Translations under genes and position numbers: made by a program | The notes under the pieces: model-generated | The model's input: only the letters and a program-made list of their open reading frames with translations | Databases searched by the model: none | What the model was told of the DNA's origin: nothing | Assembly: GCA_045601325.1 (NCBI GenBank) | Contig: JAZRZI010000021.1 | Location: 38,191-102,190, forward strand | DNA length: 64,000 bases | Origin: Bacilli bacterium | Lineage (GTDB): Bacteria > Bacillota_I > Bacilli_A > RFN20 > CAG-826 | Reading direction: 5' to 3' | Shown here: piece after piece, positions 38,048 to 57,256 of the stretch | Position numbering within the stretch: position 1 is the first letter of the stretch | Layout of the letters: the number at the start of each line of letters is the position of its first letter

Positions 38048-39052
38048 TTAAAATAGTTTTTCTTGATGGATGATTTTTAAATGTTTATAGGCCTTATCAT
38101 TTGCAATTCTGCCACGAGGTGTTCGATCAATAAATCCTATTTGAATTAGATAAGGTTCATATACATCTTCAAGGTTCATAATTTCCTCACCTATTGCGCT
38201 AGCTAAAGTTTCCAAACCAACAGGACCGCCTTTGAACCTTTCAATTAAAGTTTCGAGATATTTTACATCAACATCATCCAAACCAATTTCATCAACTTTT
38301 AAAGCTGATAAAGCATACATTGCATCCTCTAATGTGATGTTTTCTTTGCCACTATAATTGGCAAAATCTCTTACTCTTCTAAATAATCTATTTGCAATAC
38401 GTGGAGTTCCACGACTTCTCTTTGCTATTTCATAAGCAGCTTCTTTTGAAATGCCTGTATTAAACACTTTAGCTGTTCTAAGAACGATTTGTTCAACTTC
38501 ATCAATATCATAAAATGATAATTTTTCTGTGATGCCAAATCTCGCTCTTAAAGGTGAACTTAAGTTACCAGCACGTGTTGTTGCACCAATTAATGTGAAA
38601 GGTGGCAAATCTAATGTAATAGCGCGACTTCCAGATTCTCTATTGATAACAACAGAAAACTTAAAATCTTCCATTGCGGTATATAAACTTTCTTCCACCA
38701 CTCTAGGTAGGCGGTGTATTTCATCAATGAATAAAATATCACCAGGTTCAAGTTCTGATAGCAATGCAGCTAAATCACCTGTTTTTTCTAAGCTTGGTCC
38801 ACTAGCCACATGAATATGAGAATGCATTTCATTTGCTACAACATCAGCAAGTGTTGTCTTTCCTAATCCAGGAGGGCCATATAAAAGAATATGATCAAGA
38901 GACTCTTCTCTATGAAGAGCAGCACCAATGAAGATTTCTAAATTCTTTTTCAAATCTTTTTGACCAACATATTCTTTTAATGTCTGAGGTCTTAATGATA
39001 GTTCTTCTTGTTTATCTTGGGAACATGGATTGGCATCGAGTAATCTAGACAT
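38048..39052 (-). CDS. ruvB: Holliday junction branch-migration helicase RuvB
   Basis: 334 aa; AAA+ Walker A GPPGLGKTT; RuvB C-terminal winged helix. Confidence 0.9.
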   Translation of the reverse strand: MSRLLDANPCSQDKQEELSLRPQTLKEYVGQKDLKKNLEIFIGAALHREESLDHILLYGPPGLGKTTLADVVANEMHSHIHVASGPSLEKTGDLAALLSELEPGDILFIDEIHRLPRVVEESLYTAMEDFKFSVVINRESGSRAITLDLPPFTLIGATTRAGNLSSPLRARFGITEKLSFYDIDEVEQIVLRTAKVFNTGISKEAAYEIAKRSRGTPRIANRLFRRVRDFANYSGKENITLEDAMYALSALKVDEIGLDDVDVKYLETLIERFKGGPVGLETLASAIGEEIMNLEDVYEPYLIQIGFIDRTPRGRIANDKAYKHLKIIHQEKLF

Positions 39053-39736: not shown

Positions 39737-40474
39737 TTATCCTCTAATAAATTCTTTAGGTGTTGGGATTGGCGATCTCTTGTGTTCACTAATTTTATGA
39801 AGATGTTCAATTCTTTGTTTAACAGCATCTGAAACGTCACCACCAAGCAAATAAGAATCTAAATCATTATATGTAATGCCCATTTCACCTTCATCTGTTT
39901 GTCCCTCAAACAAGCCTGCAGAAGGTATTCTTTCGGCAAGATTGTTAGAAACACCTAATATTTTGGCAGCTTCCACTACTTCTGATTTTGTCAAATAAAC
40001 GATAGGTAACAAATCAGCTGCACCATCACCATATTTAGTAAAGTATCCAGTGTATCTTTCATCCATATTATCAGTACCAAGTACCAATCCACGATGTTTT
40101 TGAGCGTAAGCATAAAGAATAGACATTCTAATTCTAACCTTAAGGTTAGATAATGTGGAAATGTCAAGTTCATGACCAATAGAAATGAATTTTTCTTTTA
40201 AAGAATGATAAGCTTCAGTTGCATCAATAACCAAGTAGTTAAGATCTAATTGGTTCGCTAAATCTAGGGCATCTTTTAAATCATTTGGATTAGATTCTAT
40301 CGGCATCATAATGCACATTAACTTATCTTTGCCAACCGCTTTTTTAGTTAAAGAAGCAACAAGTGATGAATCAACACCACCAGAAAGACCTAGGACATAG
40401 GTATTCATGCCTGTAGATTGCAAATAATCTTTTATAAAAGATTCGATTTCGTTTAAATATTCATTAAGTTTCAT
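39737..40474 (-). CDS. nadE: NH3-dependent NAD+ synthetase
   Basis: 245 aa; PP-loop SGGVDSS. Confidence 0.85.
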   Translation of the reverse strand: MKLNEYLNEIESFIKDYLQSTGMNTYVLGLSGGVDSSLVASLTKKAVGKDKLMCIMMPIESNPNDLKDALDLANQLDLNYLVIDATEAYHSLKEKFISIGHELDISTLSNLKVRIRMSILYAYAQKHRGLVLGTDNMDERYTGYFTKYGDGAADLLPIVYLTKSEVVEAAKILGVSNNLAERIPSAGLFEGQTDEGEMGITYNDLDSYLLGGDVSDAVKQRIEHLHKISEHKRSPIPTPKEFIRG

Positions 40475-42758: not shown

Positions 42759-42913
42759 AATGTCCCTCCTTTTAAATAGATTCACTAAGGACTCGCTATG
42801 AAGGTACTTCTTAAGAAGTTTAGGAACCTTTTCTATGCGGTTGTAGCTAGTGAGGCGACAACGTTAGTAATATAACATAAGTTATAAAATAAGGTCAAAT
42901 ATTTTTTAATTAA
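42759..42913 (-). ncRNA. Possible ribosomal-protein L21 leader (autoregulatory 5' UTR)
   Basis: Non-coding stretch of about 150 nt upstream of rplU containing short GC-rich paired segments (GTTGTAGCTAGTGAGGCGACAAC), in the position where Firmicutes carry the L21 leader. Not checked against a covariance model. Confidence 0.25.
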
Positions 42914-43594
42914 TTAATAATCTTTCAAACATTTTTCGAAAAAAGAATAATAACAAGAATCACAAATAATAAGATGATCAAGCAACTTAATCTTTAACCT
43001 TTCACACAGTGATAGAAGTTCTATTGTAAAAGAAATATCATTGTTAGATGGAAATGCATTATTACTAGGATGATTATGAGCAATATAAAAAGTATTGCAC
43101 CCACAAGACAAAACAGAATTGATAATAAGGCTAGGAGAAGAGATTAACGTATCTTCGTTTCCTATAGATATAACTTTTTCTTGAATTATTGACTTTCTAT
43201 AAATAGAAATAACTACTAGTTTTTCACTAATTTCATTACCAATTTTATTTTTCACTAGATTAGCTATAAAGTTATTATCTAAACGTTTCTTTTTATCAAT
43301 TAATTCAGCTTCTTTAGTCCGTTCACAAAGCTCAAAAACCGCGGTTAATTTCAAAGCTTTAGAATCTCCTATACCTTTGTATTGTTTAAACTGTCCATAG
43401 CTCATTTTCGAAATATTCTCTAACCCACAATTATCATTAAGAATTGTATTTGCAATTTCTAATGCTGATTCACTTTTGGACCCACTACTAATGATAATAG
43501 CCAAAAGTTCGGTTGTTGATAATTGTTCAATTCCTAAAAGTTTAGCCTTTTCTCTAGGCCTTTCAAAAATTGATAAGTCAATTATTCTAGCCAT
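42914..43594 (-). CDS. radC: RadC-like JAB/MPN-domain protein (UPF0758)
   Basis: N-terminal HhH-like region (DLSIFERPREKA…LSTTELLAIIISSG) and a JAMM-like motif HNHPSNNAFPSNND. Start set at the internal ATG directly after the upstream small-ORF stop; the ORF track begins at 43618. Confidence 0.75.
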   Translation of the reverse strand: MARIIDLSIFERPREKAKLLGIEQLSTTELLAIIISSGSKSESALEIANTILNDNCGLENISKMSYGQFKQYKGIGDSKALKLTAVFELCERTKEAELIDKKKRLDNNFIANLVKNKIGNEISEKLVVISIYRKSIIQEKVISIGNEDTLISSPSLIINSVLSCGCNTFYIAHNHPSNNAFPSNNDISFTIELLSLCERLKIKLLDHLIICDSCYYSFFEKCLKDY

Positions 43595-43596
43595 GA

Positions 43597-43779
43597 TTAG
43601 TTCCAAGTAAATTTCCAACCACCAGGAATTTGTGCTGTACCTTTTTTAGAAAAGAAAAGTTTGTAAACAACTATCGCCATTACCGCAACACACATAATTG
43701 CCATAATAGTAGTAACAGTAAAGGCTGCGCCAGTTACTTTGTTTTCTAATTCGTTTTCATTTAAAGCAATGTAGTTCAT
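43597..43779 (-). CDS. Small single-TM membrane protein (60 aa), hypothetical
   Basis: GGAGG RBS 6 nt before the ATG; hydrophobic core AAFTVTTIMAIMCVAVMAIVVY. The valS terminator hairpin upstream sequesters the RBS. Confidence 0.4.
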   Translation of the reverse strand: MNYIALNENELENKVTGAAFTVTTIMAIMCVAVMAIVVYKLFFSKKGTAQIPGGWKFTWN

Positions 43780-43834: not shown

Positions 43835-46429
43835 TTATAAAAGTTTTCTTTTCTTCTCTAATAAGGAAACTAAATTTTCCTTATGCTTAGCGAGTTTTTC
43901 TTTTTCTAACTCTATTTTTGCAGCTGGAGCCTTAGAAACAAAGTTAGGATTTCCAAGCATTTTCTCACCTCTAGCAATCTCTGATTGTTCTTCTAAAATT
44001 TCTTTTTCAATTCTTGCTAAAATCTCATCTTTGCCTGCTTCATTGACAATTAATAAATCAGCGAAGTCATATATTTTTAACTCGCCATTCATATGAACGA
44101 TTTCCTCACCGACAAATTTAAGCTCAGAGAATGTAAACTTACTCAAATAAGTTTCAAAACCGTTAAACATATCTATTTTTAAATTCAAAGATAATTCTAA
44201 TTTAGCATTAGGAGCAATCTTGTTTTCAATTTTATAATTTCTTACATCTCTAACGATATCAATAATGAGTTCAACTTGTTTATCCTCTGATTCATCGATA
44301 AGATCATTTTCCACTATTGGGTAATCTTCCAACATAATAGATTCTTTATGGCCAGGCATATTGAGATATAACTCTTCTGCAATAAATGGAGTGTATGGAT
44401 AAATCATCTTAATGATAGATTTCAAACATTTAGCAAGAACTTGTCTAGTTGTCTCAACTACAGTTTCATTTTCTGAATAAAGAGATACTTTGCTCATTTC
44501 AAGATATTGAGAACAGAAATCATCATACACAAAATTATATAAATGGCTACTCGCAGCATTGAAATCATATTTATCCATATTCATGCTGACAGAAGCTATT
44601 GTCTTTTCAAGTTTATTGATAATCCATTGATCAACTGGTGAAAAATTAGTCTTATCTAATTCTTTTTCCATAAAGCCTTCTGGAAGTATGCTTAGAACAA
44701 ATCTAGCAGAGTTCCAAATTTTATTAAGATAGTTAGTTGATGCAACAATCTTTTCATCAATATAACGCATATCTTGTCCTGGTGTCGAATTGGTTGTTAA
44801 GAAATATCTGAGAGCATCAGCACCATATTGGTCTATAACAGCAATTGGATCAACGCCATTTCCTAATGTTTTAGACATTTTACGGCCCAATTCATCTCTA
44901 ACCAAGCCATGAATCACAACTTCCTTAAATGGTCTTTGTTTTGTCATTTCTAGTGATTGGAAAATCATACGACTAACCCAGAAGAAAATAATGTCATAAC
45001 CTGTTACTAATACATCAGTAGGAAAATATCTTTCTAAATCTGGGGTCTTATTTGGCCATCCCATTGTAGAAAATGGCCATAACGCTGATGAGAACCAAGT
45101 GTCCAAAACATCGCTTTCTTGTTCGTAATTTTCAATATCTTTTGGTGGATCCATTGACACGACGACTTCACCAGTGTGCTTATTAAAATAAGCAGGTATT
45201 CTATGTCCCCACCATAATTGACGAGAGACACACCAGTCTTCAACATTTTCCATCCATTGCGTAAAGACTTTTTCAAATCTTTCAGGAACAAAGTTAACTT
45301 TGCTATCTTTATCTTGATTTGCCAATGCTTGTTGAGCAAGAGGCTTCATTCTTACGAACCATTGCTTAGAGAGCATAGGTTCAACAACACAATGTGTTCT
45401 TTCAGAATGGCCAACAGGGTGAACAATATTTTCAATTTTCACCAAATTTCCAGACTCTTTTATATCGTTGACCAATACTTTTCTACATTCAAAACGATCC
45501 AAACCAACATATTTGCCACAAAGTTCGTTCATTGTAGCATTCTTATTAAATATAATTGGCATCTTTAATCCATATTTTTTACCAATTAAAAAGTCATTTG
45601 GATCATGAGCAGGTGTACATTTCATAGCACCTGTACCAAATTCGATATCAACATATTCGTCTGCGATAATTGGAATTTCTTCACCATTAGCAGGGTTGAT
45701 AACATTTTTGCCGATATACTTTGTGTATCTTTCATCGTTTGGATTAACAACAACACATGTATCGCCAAACATTGTTTCAGGTCTAGTTGTAGCGACAGTT
45801 AATGCTTCATCAGTGCCAACAATGTGATATAAGAAATAAAACATTTGGCCAGGATCATCTTCATGAATTACTTCAACATTTGACAAAGCAGTTCTTTGAA
45901 CAGGGTCCCAGTTAATGATTCTTTCGCCTTGATAAATCAATCCTTTATTATATAAATCAACAAATACTGTACGGACAGCATAGTTAAGACCTTCATCAAG
46001 GGTAAACCTTTCTCTCGAGTAATCTAATGATAGCCCCATTTGAGCCCATTGATCGTGTATGCTATTTGCATATTCATCTTTCCACGCCCAAGCGGTTTTC
46101 AAGAAATCCTCACGCGAAATTTTGGTAACATCAACACCAGATTTGCTCAATTTTTCCATTACTTTTGCTTGTGTAGCAATACCAGCGTGGTCCATACCTG
46201 GAAGCCATAAAACATCAAAGCCCTTCATTCTTTTATAACGAGCAATGATATCTTGGATTGTTGTATCCCAAGCATGGCCGATGTGAAGTTTACCAGTTAC
46301 ATTTGGAGGTGGAATAACAATTGAAAATGGTTGTTTAGACATATCACCTGCAGTGAAATAACCATTTTTCTTCCAATTTTCATACTTTCCAGCTTCTACT
46401 TCTTTGGAATTGTAACGTTTTTCTAACAT
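43835..46429 (-). CDS. valS: Valyl-tRNA synthetase
   Basis: 864 aa; class I HIGH (PNVTGKLHIGH) and KMSKS (KMSKTLGN) motifs; C-terminal coiled coil. Confidence 0.9.
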   Translation of the reverse strand: MLEKRYNSKEVEAGKYENWKKNGYFTAGDMSKQPFSIVIPPPNVTGKLHIGHAWDTTIQDIIARYKRMKGFDVLWLPGMDHAGIATQAKVMEKLSKSGVDVTKISREDFLKTAWAWKDEYANSIHDQWAQMGLSLDYSRERFTLDEGLNYAVRTVFVDLYNKGLIYQGERIINWDPVQRTALSNVEVIHEDDPGQMFYFLYHIVGTDEALTVATTRPETMFGDTCVVVNPNDERYTKYIGKNVINPANGEEIPIIADEYVDIEFGTGAMKCTPAHDPNDFLIGKKYGLKMPIIFNKNATMNELCGKYVGLDRFECRKVLVNDIKESGNLVKIENIVHPVGHSERTHCVVEPMLSKQWFVRMKPLAQQALANQDKDSKVNFVPERFEKVFTQWMENVEDWCVSRQLWWGHRIPAYFNKHTGEVVVSMDPPKDIENYEQESDVLDTWFSSALWPFSTMGWPNKTPDLERYFPTDVLVTGYDIIFFWVSRMIFQSLEMTKQRPFKEVVIHGLVRDELGRKMSKTLGNGVDPIAVIDQYGADALRYFLTTNSTPGQDMRYIDEKIVASTNYLNKIWNSARFVLSILPEGFMEKELDKTNFSPVDQWIINKLEKTIASVSMNMDKYDFNAASSHLYNFVYDDFCSQYLEMSKVSLYSENETVVETTRQVLAKCLKSIIKMIYPYTPFIAEELYLNMPGHKESIMLEDYPIVENDLIDESEDKQVELIIDIVRDVRNYKIENKIAPNAKLELSLNLKIDMFNGFETYLSKFTFSELKFVGEEIVHMNGELKIYDFADLLIVNEAGKDEILARIEKEILEEQSEIARGEKMLGNPNFVSKAPAAKIELEKEKLAKHKENLVSLLEKKRKLL

Positions 46430-46646
46430 ATAATTCTCCTTTGGGCAAAAATAAAACGCCCTTCTAAGGACGCTTGAAGCGCGGTACCACCTTAGTTCGT
46501 TTATTCAACGCACTTTATTCTCCTATTATTCGTTAGGCAACTATTCCTCCAAAGCGACCTTCACTATCTATTTGCGCCAGGCTTCCACCATCCCTAGCTC
46601 TCTATAGCAACTTTAATAGTTACTCTTCTTTTTCACCGGAATGAAT
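46430..46646 (-). promoter_or_regulatory. T-box riboswitch leader upstream of valS
   Basis: The minus-strand RNA carries the T-box consensus AAGGTGGTACCGCG (reverse complement of 46481-46494). Next comes a terminator hairpin (AAGCGTCC…GGGCGTTTTATTTTT) whose 5' arm overlaps the T-box, allowing antiterminator/terminator competition. Confidence 0.8.
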
Positions 46647-52556: not shown

Positions 52557-53030
52557 ATGAAGACTCTATTTGTGTTAAGCGCTAGACCAGCTTGTGGCAA
52601 ATCAACATGGGCTAAGCGTTATCAATCCGTTCACGATAATACATATATTATCTCAAGTGATGCTATTAGATTTGAAATCACAGGTAAAACAGACGATTTC
52701 AGCAAGCAAAAGGAAGTATGGGAATTATTCTCCAAAAGAATTCACGAATATGCTCAAAAAAGCAAAAACGTTAAAGTAATCCTTGATGCACTATGTGATT
52801 TAAATTCACTTAGAGAAAAATATGTAAAAGAAAACCCAGAATTTGATGAATACATCTTGGTTTTGTTCCCAAGAACAGAAGATCAAATCCGTTACTATAA
52901 TAAAAAACGTCCAGAAGATTCGATAGTTCCTGACGAGGCCTTAAATAACTTGATAGATAAATGGGAAGAACCAAACGAAAAAGTCAAAAAATTATTTAAT
53001 AAAATAATTACTGTTGAATTAGACAAATAA
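52557..53030 (+). CDS. Stand-alone P-loop kinase resembling the 5'-kinase domain of polynucleotide kinase (T4 Pnk/PNKP-like)
   Basis: 157 aa; Walker A RPACGKSTWAKRY (compare GCPGSGKSTWAREF in T4 Pnk); ILDALCDLN resembles the Pnk Walker-B/lid region. No fused phosphatase domain. Confidence 0.5.
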   Translation: MKTLFVLSARPACGKSTWAKRYQSVHDNTYIISSDAIRFEITGKTDDFSKQKEVWELFSKRIHEYAQKSKNVKVILDALCDLNSLREKYVKENPEFDEYILVLFPRTEDQIRYYNKKRPEDSIVPDEALNNLIDKWEEPNEKVKKLFNKIITVELDK

Positions 53031-53066
53031 AAATAGCTGCTTAATTTGAATAAGCAGCTATTTTTT
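53029..53066. terminator. Bidirectional intrinsic terminator (AGCTGCTTA-N7-TAAGCAGCT) flanked by A- and T-runs
   Basis: Perfect 9-bp stem; AAAAT upstream and ATTTTTT downstream. Sits between the convergent kinase-like gene and the CofE-like gene. Confidence 0.6.
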
Positions 53067-54258
53067 AATCATTTGTGTAATTATCAAAATAACCTTGAAC
53101 AAGTACTACCGGAGTTCCTTTATCGCCGGAGCCACTAGTTAAGTCACAAAGTGAACCAATCAAATCAGTAATTTGTCGAGGTGTTGTTCCTTGAGAAGCC
53201 ATGTTACCAACAAGGTTACCACCTTTCTCTTTAATAGAACGTTTGATGGCTTCCTTTAATTCTTCGCCTTTTAGATCTTTATATTGGTTATCAGCGAGGT
53301 ATTTTAATTTTAGTTCGTTAGGTGTGCCCTTTAAACCTTCTGTGTGAAATGGAGAAACAACTGGATCAGCTAGTTCCCAAATTTTTCCCTGTGGATCTTT
53401 GAAGGCACCATCGCCATAGACCATAACTTCAAATTTGCATCCGGTCTTTTCTAAAACAATTGCTTGTATCTCTTCTACTAATGATTGTGCGTCCCTAGGG
53501 AACAACTTAACTTTATCTTCGGTAGCTTTATTAGAGCCTAATAATCCATAATTTTGGTTATATCCACTGCCATTAACACTTTGTGTTAATATATCATCCA
53601 ATCCCAATACGATTTCAGCACCGTTTTCTTTCAATAAACGTTTGCTTCTTGTACGTGTATGAATGTCACATGTAAGAACTTTTTTAGTATAGTTGAGAAT
53701 AGATTTTGCTTGGTTGCCAAACACTATTTCACATTCAGCGCCTTGTTCTTCAATTAATTGTTTGTAATAAGTGATGTAATCAACACCTGTGAATTCATGA
53801 AGAGTAATACCAAATAATTCTCTCCATTTTTCTAAAGAAAGAACATCGCTATATGGGTTAACACCTTTTTCATCAAGTTGATCATATGTTAATAAAGCAT
53901 TTCCCACTTCATCAGATGGGTAAGAAAGCATTAAAACAATTTTCTTAACACCTCTAGCAATTCCTTTCAACAAAATAGAAAATCTATTTCTAGAGAGAAT
54001 TGGGAAAATAACACCGATTGTGTCATATCCGAGTTTATTTTTGACATCAGTAGCAATATCATCAATTGTGCAATAGTTGCCTTGTGCACGAGCCACTACT
54101 GATTCAGTAATAGCAATAACATCACGATTGTGTAATTCGAAGCCATCACTTTCAGCAGCTTCAATAACGCAATCGCTAACAATTTTAGCTAAGTTATCTC
54201 CTTCTTTAATAATTGGGAGTCTAATTCCTCTTGATACAGTTCCAACGCAACGTGACAT
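53065..54258 (-). CDS. CofE/FbiB-like gamma-glutamyl ligase family protein (397 aa, with an insertion)
   Basis: N-terminus LPIIKEGDNLAKIV…VIAITESVVARAQGN and C-terminus GDKGTPVVLVQG match the CofE fold motifs (LIKEGDDLAELI…, TSKAVSKAEGR, GDEGTPVVIVRG). Confidence 0.5.
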   Translation of the reverse strand: MSRCVGTVSRGIRLPIIKEGDNLAKIVSDCVIEAAESDGFELHNRDVIAITESVVARAQGNYCTIDDIATDVKNKLGYDTIGVIFPILSRNRFSILLKGIARGVKKIVLMLSYPSDEVGNALLTYDQLDEKGVNPYSDVLSLEKWRELFGITLHEFTGVDYITYYKQLIEEQGAECEIVFGNQAKSILNYTKKVLTCDIHTRTRSKRLLKENGAEIVLGLDDILTQSVNGSGYNQNYGLLGSNKATEDKVKLFPRDAQSLVEEIQAIVLEKTGCKFEVMVYGDGAFKDPQGKIWELADPVVSPFHTEGLKGTPNELKLKYLADNQYKDLKGEELKEAIKRSIKEKGGNLVGNMASQGTTPRQITDLIGSLCDLTSGSGDKGTPVVLVQGYFDNYTND

Positions 54259-54263
54259 AATTG

Positions 54264-55679
54264 TTATTCTCCTTTAGAAACTATGTTTCTAGCAATATAA
54301 ACGCCACAGGCAGAAGCTTGAGCAACACCACGTGTGATGCCAGCACCATCTCCGCCAACATATAAGTTTTTGATGTTTTTAACTTCAAGTTTATTGTCAA
54401 TTTCAGGGTGAGCTGAATAATATTTTGCCTCAACACCATATAGCAATGTGTGTTCAGTAGCAATACCAGGAGTAACCTTATCTAATGCTTGAATCATTTC
54501 AATAATTGATTTCATTGTCTTATATGGGAGGACTAGGCATAAATCTCCAGGAACAGCTTCTTTAAGAGTAGGTCTAACAAAGCCTTCTTTTAATCTCTTC
54601 TCTGTTGTTCTACGACCCATTTTAATATCGCCGAATCTTTGAACAATAACGCCACCACACGCTAATTGATTAGCAAGCGAGGAAATCTTTTTAGCGTATT
54701 CATTAGGTTCTTTGAATGGTTCAGAGAAATGATGAGAAACTAATAAAGCAAAGTTTGTGTTGTTACTAGATAGCTTGGAATCATTATATGCATGTCCATT
54801 AACATTAATAACACCTTCGTAATTTTCAACAACAACATGACCTCCTGGATTAGAACAGAAAGTACGAACTGTACTTCCTACGGAAGTCTTGTATAAAAAT
54901 TTGCCTTCATATAAATTTGTATTAATTTCATCCATGATTAAGTTTGGACATTCGACACGTACACCGATGTCAACTTGAGTTTGCGACATGGTAACATTAC
55001 GTTTTTCTAAAATATTGCTTAACCATTCGCTACCTTTTCTACCAACACCTAAAACGGTATATGTTGATTCAATAACTGTGCCGTCTTCTAAAATAACACC
55101 TTTGCATTCATTGTTTTCAACGATGATGTCTGAAACTGATTTTCTGAAGACCATTTCAATCTTGCCTTCTAGGTCATTAAAGATTCTAGTCAAGATTTTT
55201 AAGTTTTCTTCTGTGCCGAAATGACGAACTTTACTTCTTAAAAGCCTTAAGCCAACAGACATAGCACGTAACTCAATTTCACGAACTTTAATTGTATCCG
55301 GATTTGTTAACACTTTGGTTGCACCGAAATGCAAATTGATTTCATCAACATAGTTGATTAAATCCATCAACTCTTTATCATCGATATAATCAGTTAACCA
55401 ACCACCAAATTCTGTTGTAATATTAAATTTTCCATCAGAATAAGCACCAGCACCACCAAAACCATTTGTTATGCTGCATGCTGGAAAGCATTCTTGAATG
55501 CCTTCGGCGTTACTTGGACATTTTTCTAATCTGTGTTCTAAAACAGGACATCTTCTTTTTGAGATGTCGTGCCCACGATCGATTAATATAATTTTTAAAT
55601 TTGGATTTTTTTGAATTAACTCATAGGCGCAGAAATAGCCTGTTGGGCCTGCACCGACAATTGCTACATCGTATTTCAT
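54264..55679 (-). CDS. FAD-dependent oxidoreductase (uncharacterised COG2509-like dehydrogenase)
   Basis: N-terminal Rossmann dinucleotide motif VAIVGAGPTG; 471 aa. Confidence 0.65.
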   Translation of the reverse strand: MKYDVAIVGAGPTGYFCAYELIQKNPNLKIILIDRGHDISKRRCPVLEHRLEKCPSNAEGIQECFPACSITNGFGGAGAYSDGKFNITTEFGGWLTDYIDDKELMDLINYVDEINLHFGATKVLTNPDTIKVREIELRAMSVGLRLLRSKVRHFGTEENLKILTRIFNDLEGKIEMVFRKSVSDIIVENNECKGVILEDGTVIESTYTVLGVGRKGSEWLSNILEKRNVTMSQTQVDIGVRVECPNLIMDEINTNLYEGKFLYKTSVGSTVRTFCSNPGGHVVVENYEGVINVNGHAYNDSKLSSNNTNFALLVSHHFSEPFKEPNEYAKKISSLANQLACGGVIVQRFGDIKMGRRTTEKRLKEGFVRPTLKEAVPGDLCLVLPYKTMKSIIEMIQALDKVTPGIATEHTLLYGVEAKYYSAHPEIDNKLEVKNIKNLYVGGDGAGITRGVAQASACGVYIARNIVSKGE

Positions 55680-55681
55680 AA

Positions 55682-57172
55682 TTAGCTCTCCTTGAGGAAT
55701 AAATGTTTTGCGTGGCTAATAGGTTCTTCAGTCACATCAATGCCTAACTTTTTAAAAGTATTTAAGTCGGCAGGGGATAAAATTTCAGATGAATGGGCTT
55801 GTAAGCCTTTCAATAATGGAATTTGTTTTAATGCAATTTCCGCTATTGGGTTGTTGTTTGCTTGAATCGCTAAAGCAATAAGTGTTTCTTCGGCGTGAAT
55901 TGTTGGATTTCTATTTCCTAAATCTTGAACTTTCAATTGTTGAATAGGTTCAATAACTGATGGGCTAATTAAAGGAATTGAGTCATCAATTTTTGCAAAT
56001 GTTTTCAGAGCATTAAGAAGCAAGGCAGCACTGGAAGTAAATAAATGAGAACTCTTTCCAGTAATGATCTTTCCATGTGGCATTTCCATAGCCATGCTTG
56101 GTCTTCCGCACTTGGAAGCCTTATCTAAAGCGGCTTGAACACATTTTCTATCAGCTTTAGTAACACCGGCTTGATTCATAAGCATTTCTTCTTTTTGAAC
56201 CGCTGTGTCTTTAAATAATCCTAAATAATTATTTTTAAGAGCTTGGTAGTAACGTCTAATGATTTCGTTACGACTTGCTTTATTACAAATGTTTTCATCT
56301 TTAATGGCGAAACCAGCCATATTGACACCCATATCAGTTGGTGAATTATAAGGTGATTTTCCATAAATCTTTTCAAATATTGCTCTTAGCAATGGGAATG
56401 CTTCAACATCTCTATTATAGTTGACAGATAATTTGCCATATGCCTCTAAATGATATGGATCAATCATATTAACATCGCTCAAATCAGCAGTAGCTGATTC
56501 GTATGCTAAGTTAATTGGGTGCTTAAGTGGTAAATTCCAAATTGGGAATGTTTCATACTTAGCATATCCTGCTCTAATACCGTTCTTATTATCATGATAG
56601 AGTTGAGACAAACAAGTTGCCATTTTGCCACTACCAGGACCAGGAGCAGTAATAACAACTAAAGGATGAGTGGTTTCGATATACTCGTTTTTACCAAGTC
56701 CTTCTTCGCTAACAATTGTTTCAATATTATATGGATAGCCATTAATTTCGTAATGACGATAAACTTTTATTCCGTTTTTCTCTAATTTGGCTTGGAATTT
56801 CTTAACTAAAGAAACATCTTTATAGAAGGAGAAGACAACGCTTCCAACATACAAGTCAGCCTCGCGGAAAGCATCGATTAATCTTTCAACTTCTTGTTGA
56901 TAAGAAATACCAAAATCATTTCTCATTTTTTGAGAATTGATATCATCTGAATTAACGACGATTACGATTTCAACCTTTTCTCTTAAAGTGAGAAGCATTT
57001 TTAATTTGCTGTTAGGAGCAAAACCAGGCATAACTCTTGATGCATGATAGTCATCGAATAATTTGCCACCAAATTCAATATAAAGTTTGTCACCAAAATT
57101 AGAGATACGTTTAAGAATCTCTTCTCTTTGAATCTTTAAATAAAGGTTTTTATCAAATCCGATTTTGCCCAT
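55682..57172 (-). CDS. UPF0371/DUF1846-family protein with a P-loop-like motif
   Basis: 496 aa; N-terminus MGKIGFDKNLYLKIQREEIL typical of UPF0371; internal ITAPGPGSGKMATC Walker-A-like motif. Confidence 0.5.
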   Translation of the reverse strand: MGKIGFDKNLYLKIQREEILKRISNFGDKLYIEFGGKLFDDYHASRVMPGFAPNSKLKMLLTLREKVEIVIVVNSDDINSQKMRNDFGISYQQEVERLIDAFREADLYVGSVVFSFYKDVSLVKKFQAKLEKNGIKVYRHYEINGYPYNIETIVSEEGLGKNEYIETTHPLVVITAPGPGSGKMATCLSQLYHDNKNGIRAGYAKYETFPIWNLPLKHPINLAYESATADLSDVNMIDPYHLEAYGKLSVNYNRDVEAFPLLRAIFEKIYGKSPYNSPTDMGVNMAGFAIKDENICNKASRNEIIRRYYQALKNNYLGLFKDTAVQKEEMLMNQAGVTKADRKCVQAALDKASKCGRPSMAMEMPHGKIITGKSSHLFTSSAALLLNALKTFAKIDDSIPLISPSVIEPIQQLKVQDLGNRNPTIHAEETLIALAIQANNNPIAEIALKQIPLLKGLQAHSSEILSPADLNTFKKLGIDVTEEPISHAKHLFLKES

Positions 57173-57256
57173 GACTAAAAAATATTAGCACCTTTTTAAT
57201 AGCCTTTAAATAATTTTTATATTATTTTAAGAAGCGTGTAGTATCATGTAGGATAA

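Follow-up and report, generated by a model that had tools for sequence, protein, structure and literature searches.

What does a relative of CofE, the glutamate ligase of coenzyme F420 synthesis, do in a three-gene operon with no other F420 gene around it? We met this question in a Bacilli bacterium (assembly GCA_045601325.1), in the 64-kb stretch of contig JAZRZI010000021.1 that we analyzed (positions 38,191 to 102,190; hereafter, the window), where a CofE-like gene follows genes for a DUF1846/UPF0371 protein and a flavin adenine dinucleotide (FAD)-dependent protein. A preliminary description had taken the three products to be successive steps of a small-molecule or peptide modification pathway. 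We give a probability of about one half to a different reading, namely that the operon is a cytidine triphosphate (CTP) synthase joined to a conserved two-enzyme module in nucleotide or one-carbon metabolism, and neither an F420 nor a peptide-modification pathway. The genes, their internal features and the signals between them are:

55682-57172, minus strand: pyrJ-like gene (DUF1846/UPF0371), 496 amino acids (aa), predicted ammonia-dependent CTP synthase, from Pfam, NCBIfam and PDB similarity
56612-56641, minus strand: P-loop GPGSGKMATC of the PyrJ-like protein, residues 178-187, read from the translation; the pneumococcal protein is the same except M to L
54264-55679, minus strand: gene for a COG2509/VP0956-type FAD-dependent oxidoreductase, 471 aa, from Pfam and PDB similarity
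55476-55550, minus strand: Cys-x9-Cys-x9-Cys-x3-Cys (C44, C54, C64, C68), an insert in the FAD-binding domain, from alignments
53065-54258, minus strand: gene for a "long" CofE-like protein of the PF01996 superfamily, 397 aa, predicted nucleoside triphosphate (NTP)-dependent amide (gamma-glutamyl-type) ligase with a non-F420 substrate
53575-54024, minus strand: Rossmann-like alpha/beta insert of the CofE-like protein, ~residues 79-228, with motifs S89-R-N91-R92 and D116-E-x-G-N, from profile alignment and the secondary structure of the model
55686-55693, minus strand: Shine-Dalgarno sequence AAGGAGAG of the FAD gene, read from the sequence, within the pyrJ 3' end; 2 nt from stop to ATG
54267-54275, minus strand: Shine-Dalgarno sequence AAAGGAGAA of the CofE-like gene, read from the sequence, within the FAD gene 3' end; 5 nt from stop to ATG
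53029-53065, both strands: hairpin resembling a bidirectional intrinsic terminator, with a 15-bp stem and a 7-nt loop, flanked by an A-run at one end and a T-run at the other end

All three open reading frames (ORFs; 496, 471 and 397 aa) lie on the minus strand at these coordinates, in DNA of ~32-35% G+C content throughout. The tight packing first described for them stands, although the gaps are 2 nt (pyrJ-like/FAD) and 5 nt (FAD/CofE-like) rather than 3-5 nt. Since a strong Shine-Dalgarno sequence is embedded in the last codons of the upstream gene at both junctions, the arrangement is one of classical translational coupling. The shared strand, minimal spacing, coupled ribosome-binding sites, absence of an internal terminator and terminal hairpin predict co-transcription as a single operon, and the operon arrangement proposed earlier is borne out by the gaps, the embedded Shine-Dalgarno sequences and the one terminal hairpin.

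Predicted products of the three genes

The first protein matches both DUF1846 domains over its full length (PF08903, 3.3e-168, residues 4-335; PF20921, 1.1e-55, residues 341-492) and scores 764 bits against the NCBIfam model PRK13663, for which the cut-off is 631. It aligns to PDB 7F00, the Streptococcus pneumoniae protein SPD_0310/SPRM200_0309, over 490 residues without gaps and with 54% identity. A 2024 preprint showed SPD_0310 to be PyrJ, an ammonia-dependent CTP synthase, using purified-enzyme assays and genetics that include synthetic lethality with pyrG and rescue by cytidine (bioRxiv 10.1101/2024.09.24.614635). According to the same preprint, pure PyrJ makes CTP from UTP using ATP and free ammonia, not glutamine, and needs no partner in vitro; a P-loop ATPase-like domain is joined to a cytidine-deaminase-like domain; and pyrG is absent in ~31% of pyrJ genomes. 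Haemin binding had earlier been proposed for SPD_0310 (PMC9238395).

Judged by its sequence, gene 1 is a PyrJ orthologue, and CTP synthase activity is predicted for the window protein. It shares with SPD_0310 (PDB 7F00, 3BH1) the two-domain architecture, the P-loop motif and a Firmicute host, and differs in being joined to a FAD/CofE-like pair, a context on which the searched passages of the preprint are silent. Gene 1 has been known since 2024, and what the operon adds is a genomic setting for PyrJ. The DUF1846 gene of Clostridioides difficile is essential (PMC12157513), and PyrJ is a possible drug target.

Since the pneumococcal orthologue is PyrJ, gene 1 is not an unknown activating enzyme, and this bears directly on the model of the preliminary description, in which the DUF1846 protein activates a small molecule or peptide, the flavoprotein oxidizes or reduces it and the CofE-like protein ligates it. 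The operon architecture and the recurrent co-location of the three genes speak for such a pathway, but its first step was assigned to a protein whose pneumococcal orthologue is a self-sufficient, partner-independent CTP synthase. We also found nothing that points to peptide modification: no precursor peptide, transporter, or gene of the type found with ribosomally synthesized and post-translationally modified peptides or non-ribosomal peptide synthetases lies nearby, and the recurrent neighbours elsewhere are core nucleotide and one-carbon enzymes. We therefore consider the three-step model highly improbable.

Pfam scans of essentially all ORFs of at least 150 aa in the window did not find pyrG. 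Between obg and ruvA (39737-40474, minus strand) lies a gene for a 245-aa nicotinamide adenine dinucleotide (NAD) synthase of the NH3-dependent type, which has no glutaminase domain; with this enzyme and PyrJ in the window, the organism appears reliant on ammonia-dependent amidation enzymes. Separately, the phage family phrog_30143 ("unknown function") matches the window PyrJ-like protein over its full length (5e-186), which indicates that PyrJ-type CTP synthases also occur, unannotated, in phages.

The second protein has a GxGxxG motif at residues 9-14 (VGAGPTG), in which G9, G11 and G14 are invariant in the alignment, and it matches PF21688 FAD-depend_C (4.4e-11) as well as Pyr_redox_2 and, as its best Pfam match, GIDA. 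Its only informative solved relative is "uncharacterized protein VP0956" (PDB 3NLC; 2.6e-23, residues 168-466). The GxGxxG FAD fold and the PF21688 C-terminal domain are common to the window protein and VP0956/COG2509, whereas the window subfamily adds a four-cysteine insert and a conserved CofE-like partner. C44, C54, C64 and C68 are nearly invariant in one alignment (A2; 20 homologues, 36-74% identity) and invariant in another (A3), suggesting a possible metal or Fe-S site; the motif is not present in the distant FAD homologue of locus L083. A structure model made from a shallow alignment reached a predicted local distance difference test score (pLDDT) of 54.7. The protein has more than 8000 database clusters at 75-78% identity, and our searches found no literature on COG2509 or VP0956.

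The third protein matches PF01996 F420_ligase (2.1e-56), with the whole 218-position model spread over residues 11-389, which implies large insertions. It carries the CofE-like motifs PIIKEGD, ITESVVARAQGN and SGSGDKGTPVVLVQG. These and the other motifs quoted in the preliminary description (GPGSGKMATC, VGAGPTG) are present in the translations, and its domain calls (both DUF1846 domains, an FAD-binding N-terminus with PF21688, and PF01996) were correct. The CofE equivalog models, in contrast, match only residues 13-70 and stay far below their cut-offs (TIGR01916, 47.4 vs 180.65 bits; NF009809, 54.8 vs 274; NF009810, 16.3 vs 304).

An AlphaFold (AF2) model built with 27 diverse homologues had a pLDDT of 93.8 and a predicted template-modelling score of 0.90, and its only significant PDB matches in Foldseek were the Archaeoglobus fulgidus CofE (Af-CofE) structures 2PHN, 2G9I and 7ULD (probability 1.0; template-modelling score 0.53 on the target; 13-14% identity). 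Reassignment of the third gene to an unrelated fold, which had been considered beforehand, is thus not what the structural search returned. A profile alignment places residues 15-68, 243-282 and 364-390 on Af-CofE 13-57, 112-150 and 196-222, leaving a net insertion of ~120 aa, the Rossmann-like domain at ~residues 79-228, and a second insertion of ~36 aa; the insertion that had been noticed in this protein is hence an additional domain. Across 48 bacterial and phage members, S89, N91, R92, D116, G238, L252, P254, P299, P360, T382 and P383 are invariant, and the motifs ITES..A..GN, DEVGN, GDGAFKDP, GTTPR and SGSGDKGTP are nearly so. Since several of the invariant residues lie within the insert, the insert is likely to be functional. 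Taken together, the model and alignments indicate that the third gene encodes a CofE fold carrying a new Rossmann-like domain.

Could this protein nonetheless be a gamma-glutamyl ligase for F420, or for another deazaflavin or flavin, as databases annotate it? The PF01996 match, the CofE fold, the database names and a number of flavoprotein neighbours (the FAD protein, ThyX and IMPDH/FMN_dh-like TIM barrels) would fit such a role. The Pfam family, core fold, N-terminal "PxIKEGDD...ES/TV..A.G" and C-terminal "G.G..G.P.V.V.G" motifs are indeed shared with CofE and FbiB's N-terminal domain (PDB 2PHN, 7ULD). However, the window protein scores below every CofE equivalog cut-off, has two inserts and has invariant residues of its own family (SRNR, DEVGN, GDGAFKDP, GTTPR, SGSGDKGTP). 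In Af-CofE, the F420 ring is contacted by F92, G153-C155 and R234 of the partner subunit (PMC10861534). The CofE-like protein stops 7 residues past the motif aligned to Af-CofE 194-220, so that the R234 segment, which stacks on the ring, is without a counterpart, and the ~120-aa insert takes the place of the F92 region, a comparison that for both residues uses the low-scoring profile alignment.

Genomic context points the same way. The Pfam scans of the window found no cofC, cofD, cofG or cofH, no cof gene is present among the annotated neighbours in ~200 related loci, and the gene is carried by Clostridia and Bacilli of the gut and by phages of these bacteria. The earlier assignment to the CofE superfamily without F420 genes nearby is therefore upheld by PF01996, the Foldseek matches and the scans. 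With the ring-contact segments lost and no cof gene in the scanned window, an F420 role is very unlikely, and we rate true F420 ligase activity as the least probable of the explanations considered here.

This conclusion reaches beyond the window. For the long CofE-like protein, databases contain over 8000 clusters at 77-84% identity, and any name given to them is "coenzyme F420-0:L-glutamate ligase"; the protein has at least 593 relatives at 72-79% identity in a species-level genome collection (Clostridia, Negativicutes, Erysipelotrichales), 1674 representatives at 50% clustering and full-length members down to 33% identity. The F420-ligase label on thousands of gut and rumen Firmicute genomes and on some very large phages is thus very probably wrong. 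Judging from the literature searched, both the long CofE-like proteins and their flavoprotein partners are uncharacterized and systematically misnamed. A wrong cofE label can spread into ecological conclusions: one study lists a viral "cofE" among genes exclusive to methane metabolism (PMC10904782), and this gene may be a mislabelled member of the long CofE-like family.

Conservation and neighbours of the FAD/CofE-like pair

Whether the three genes travel together was assessed first in 80 species-level genome loci with a ~75%-identical CofE-like gene. The FAD gene adjoins the CofE-like gene in three of them (L001, L003 and, divergently, L066), DUF1846 is within 8 kb of it in two, and the triad is absent from 77 of the 80. 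The verdict of "not co-conserved" drawn from these loci was partly reversed when sampling was widened to distant CofE-like members and FAD-seeded loci. In L092-L098, a clade whose FAD protein is 71-78% identical to the window's, the FAD gene is followed directly by the CofE-like gene; the same order, with gaps of 2-3 nt, occurs in L195-L203, every informative place for two further FAD proteins. The FAD-to-CofE-like spacing is 2-15 nt across L001, L003, L092-L098 and L195-L203. In L083, identity to the window's proteins falls to 37% for the CofE-like protein and 33% for the FAD protein (the latter matching over its full length, E = 1e-74), and the two genes overlap by 4 nt.

The position of pyrJ relative to the pair is more variable. 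The order in the window is pyrJ-FAD-CofE-like; L096 and L098 have FAD-CofE-like-pyrJ, with pyrJ immediately downstream; L201 has FAD-CofE-like-udk-ORF-pyrJ, udk being a uridine-kinase-family gene; and L084 and L085 have a 33%-identical CofE-like gene followed by pyrJ, without FAD. Thus, the FAD and CofE-like genes are a true translationally coupled two-gene module in part of their range, to which pyrJ is attached recurrently but loosely, in at least four arrangements, so that the trio is linked without being a fixed pathway. Conservation of the triad, as first suggested, accordingly holds for the FAD/CofE-like unit and, in several orders, for the recurrence of DUF1846 nearby, but not for a fixed set of three genes.

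These data also bear on whether the cluster is chance, or compact packing of unrelated housekeeping genes with three independent functions. The absence of the triad from 77 of the 80 loci, the dense housekeeping region that the window represents and the self-sufficiency of PyrJ all fit that explanation. Against it, adjacency of the FAD and CofE-like genes is seen in four or more independent configurations, one of them in the lineage at 33-37% identity with overlapping genes, and FAD adjacency in 3 of 75 loci has p ~3e-5 under a crude chance model of 2/2500. Finally, pyrJ lies near the pair in four different orders, and its retention through rearrangement argues for selection. We consider chance very unlikely. 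The 75-80% identity of the CofE-like protein and the flavoprotein across bacterial classes marks an important function.

Neighbours other than pyrJ carry a common theme. In 24 of 75 genome loci, the gene next after the CofE-like gene encodes a guanosine monophosphate (GMP) synthase that lacks its glutaminase (GATase) domain, at a spacing of -35 to +91 nt. These loci fall within L006-L079 (e.g., L023:9216-10217 and L032:9172-10503) and belong to Clostridia, Negativicutes and Erysipelotrichales. The 333-aa protein consists of a PP-loop and a C-terminal domain, while the 443-aa GMP synthase neighbour in Beduini retains only a glutaminase remnant (GATase positions 1-76 of 190). An IMPDH/GMP-reductase family gene occupies position +1 in L090, 16 nt downstream of the CofE-like gene, and L086 has a NAPRTase-nicotinamidase fusion upstream of the CofE-like gene.

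The long CofE-like gene is also present on 24 viral contigs (IMG/VR, L171-L194), many of them 117-380 kb long and with phage hallmark genes; many are low-GC jumbo phages with a T4-like portal, DnaB, an SNF2-intein and ClpP. Its neighbours there include IMPDH-family genes in five loci, SHMT in L179, L180 and L193, ThyX in L185 and an NH3-type NAD synthase (NadE) in L187; PHROGs and BFVD held no counterpart of the viral gene. The FAD homologues at 45-50% identity that have neither partner nearby (70 metagenome loci, L101-L170) are in many cases found directly downstream of genes for a PurO-type IMP cyclohydrolase and an AICAR formyltransferase of the stand-alone kind. The theme of these neighbourhoods is late steps of nucleotide and cofactor synthesis together with folate-dependent enzymes, and the links to PyrJ, the GATase-less GMP synthase and folate enzymes make the module open to experiment.

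Two sets of divergent loci deserve separate mention. In L084 (L084:8001-12537) and L085, the CofE-like copy lacks the family motifs GTTPR and GDGAFKDP and is still upstream of DUF1846/PyrJ, followed by a type III pantothenate kinase (CoaX) and the S component of an ECF transporter; the copy may have degenerated or taken on a regulatory role. The CoaX gene of L084 prompted an alternative modelled on CoaBC, a CTP-dependent ligase with a flavoprotein, which was dropped because it concerns one locus only, and the CofE-like gene there is degenerate. L081 has a 39%-identical long CofE-like gene (L081:8001-9206) in a 94-kb contig that, from the genes around it (RNA polymerase Rpb1, RCC1 repeats, family-X DNA polymerase, NUDIX), resembles giant-virus or eukaryote-associated DNA.

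What the pair may do

Under the reading that we favour, the CofE-like enzyme would keep CofE-type chemistry: the carboxylate of a substrate would be phosphorylated with an NTP, probably GTP, to an acyl phosphate, and an amine, probably that of L-glutamate, would attack it to form an amide. The substrate would differ from that of CofE, being anionic and nucleotide- or pterin-like, and its binding would fall to the insert, in which the SRNR and DEVGN motifs are invariant; the flavoprotein would carry out a redox step on the same molecule. Mycobacterial FbiB offers an analogy, since its CofE domain is fused to a flavin domain and the protein combines a ligase with flavin-dependent redox (PMC8498797), the difference being that the partner in the window is of the FAD/COG2509 type and not a nitroreductase-type FMN domain. 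A product that serves nucleotide or one-carbon metabolism would account for the proximity of pyrJ, GATase-less guaA, IMPDH-family genes, udk, nadE, SHMT and thyX.

Several observations weigh against this reading. In most genomes, the CofE-like gene is beside neither FAD nor pyrJ, most FAD homologues at 45-50% identity are unlinked, and many of the adjacencies were counted in genomes that are related, so that they do not represent independent events. Since nucleotide genes tend to cluster in phages anyway, the neighbours found there carry little weight. The ligase chemistry is deduced from the modelled fold alone, at 13-14% identity to CofE. In addition, the positions that we take to be the metal ligands of CofE fall, in the weak profile alignment, on L240 and S377; the identities and numbering of these Asp/Glu ligands reportedly go back to Nocek et al. 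in 2007, the alignment itself showing only the Glu of "MGEGG", and if they are right, the catalytic site of the CofE-like protein may be remodelled.

The leading specific candidate for the activity is folate polyglutamylation. The CofE-like protein would then be a FolC2-type dihydrofolate/folylpolyglutamate synthase, the flavoprotein would perform a folate-linked redox reaction, and the module would supply polyglutamylated folates for purine and thymidylate synthesis. The precedent is CT611/FolC2, a CofE-family protein of Chlamydia, which has no F420; it complements an E. coli folC mutant (PMC1971073, PMC4161248) and is the only experimental case of a CofE-family enzyme outside F420. The folate-dependent SHMT and ThyX beside the jumbo-phage genes fit this proposal, as does the 10-formyl-tetrahydrofolate-dependent AICAR formyltransferase that adjoins unlinked FAD homologues. 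GidA/MnmG and TrmFO are enzymes that use FAD and methylenetetrahydrofolate, and GIDA is the best Pfam match of the FAD protein. Pfam scans found no folC in the window, including the gap between valS and radC, and no guaA.

The likeness to CT611 has limits, however. Both are CofE-family (COG1478) proteins recruited to another cofactor, or proposed to be, in organisms without F420, but FolC2 is part of a folBKPA cluster, whereas no folate-biosynthesis gene is beside the CofE-like gene in any bacterial locus examined. FolC2 is listed in Chlamydiae only (in a 2007 SEED table), and the commonest neighbours of the CofE-like gene, guaA, the IMPDH family and pyrJ, do not use folate. A further difficulty for our reading in this specific form is that many of the Lachnospiraceae and Oscillospiraceae that carry the gene probably have a canonical FolC, so that a simple FolC replacement would be redundant. 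We hold the FolC2-type function to be possible but doubtful.

The recurrent partners suggest another role, since they share the lack of a glutaminase: PyrJ, which uses only NH3, GuaA without GATase or with a remnant, and the NH3-type NadE of L187. The ligase and flavoprotein might deliver nitrogen independently of glutamine, with glutamate being ligated to the substrate and the flavoprotein oxidizing the C-N bond so that the nitrogen is left behind and 2-oxoglutarate released, in a route serving or paralleling PyrJ, GATase-less GuaA and NadE. CofE chemistry, a GTP-dependent O-phosphorylation followed by attack of an amino-acid amine, would parallel the PurA step of PurA/PurB, and identity of 75-80% across classes would fit a protein with several partners. 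This proposal is purely inferential, however, and we know of no enzyme pair of this kind. PyrJ works alone with NH3 in vitro, high gut ammonia suffices to explain the loss of glutaminase domains, and FAD is absent from most loci with CofE-like and guaA genes, making nitrogen delivery quite unlikely. Also unlikely, if somewhat less so, is the broader proposition that the pair constitutes an unrecognized two-enzyme system of central nucleotide metabolism in anaerobic Firmicutes and jumbo phages, working beside PyrJ, GATase-less GuaA and NadE either with glutamate as nitrogen donor or toward a new glutamylated nucleotide-type cofactor.

Operon boundaries and flanking genes

Two further features lie upstream of the operon:

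57173-57256, minus strand: AT-rich 84-bp intergenic region 5' of pyrJ, read from the sequence
57257-57925, minus strand: gene for a HAD-family phosphatase, 222 aa (Pfam HAD_2, 3.3e-27)

The 84-bp region had been described as the promoter region of the operon. The gap is there, but a consensus scan found no minus-strand sigma-70 promoter in 57173-57256; there is no convincing terminator between the upstream HAD gene and the DUF1846 gene, and no Rfam element was found within or upstream of the operon. Since the scan found no promoter in the gap and no convincing terminator precedes it, transcription may start further upstream, and the HAD gene is possibly in the same transcription unit. The HAD protein has weak similarity to sugar-phosphate and pyrimidine 5'-nucleotidase families, and its gene is not conserved next to the pair in related loci. 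A promoter-like site, TGGAAA-17-TATAAT, is located at 60452-60424, ahead of three further same-strand genes, and since no strong terminator occurs before 53029, six genes could belong to one transcription unit. Two of these, on the same strand as the HAD gene and upstream of it (57928-60452), overlap by 4 nt; they encode a 286-aa membrane protein without a match in Pfam and a 531-aa secreted protein resembling class-3 lipases.

At the other end, the 15-bp hairpin at 53029-53065 agrees with the bidirectional terminator described initially and is common to the operon and a convergent gene (52557-53030, plus strand). The latter encodes a 157-aa P-loop kinase-like protein, AAA_33/KTI12-like and with weak similarity to adenylate kinase. 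In L201, the uridine-kinase-family gene holds the position after the CofE-like gene, where the window has this convergent kinase-like gene.

Elsewhere in the window, radC (42914-43618) comes immediately after valS (43835-46429, minus strand), which is preceded by a T-box leader at 46463-46645; folC, which in Bacillus follows valS, is missing from this place. An L21 leader is located at 42778-42852.

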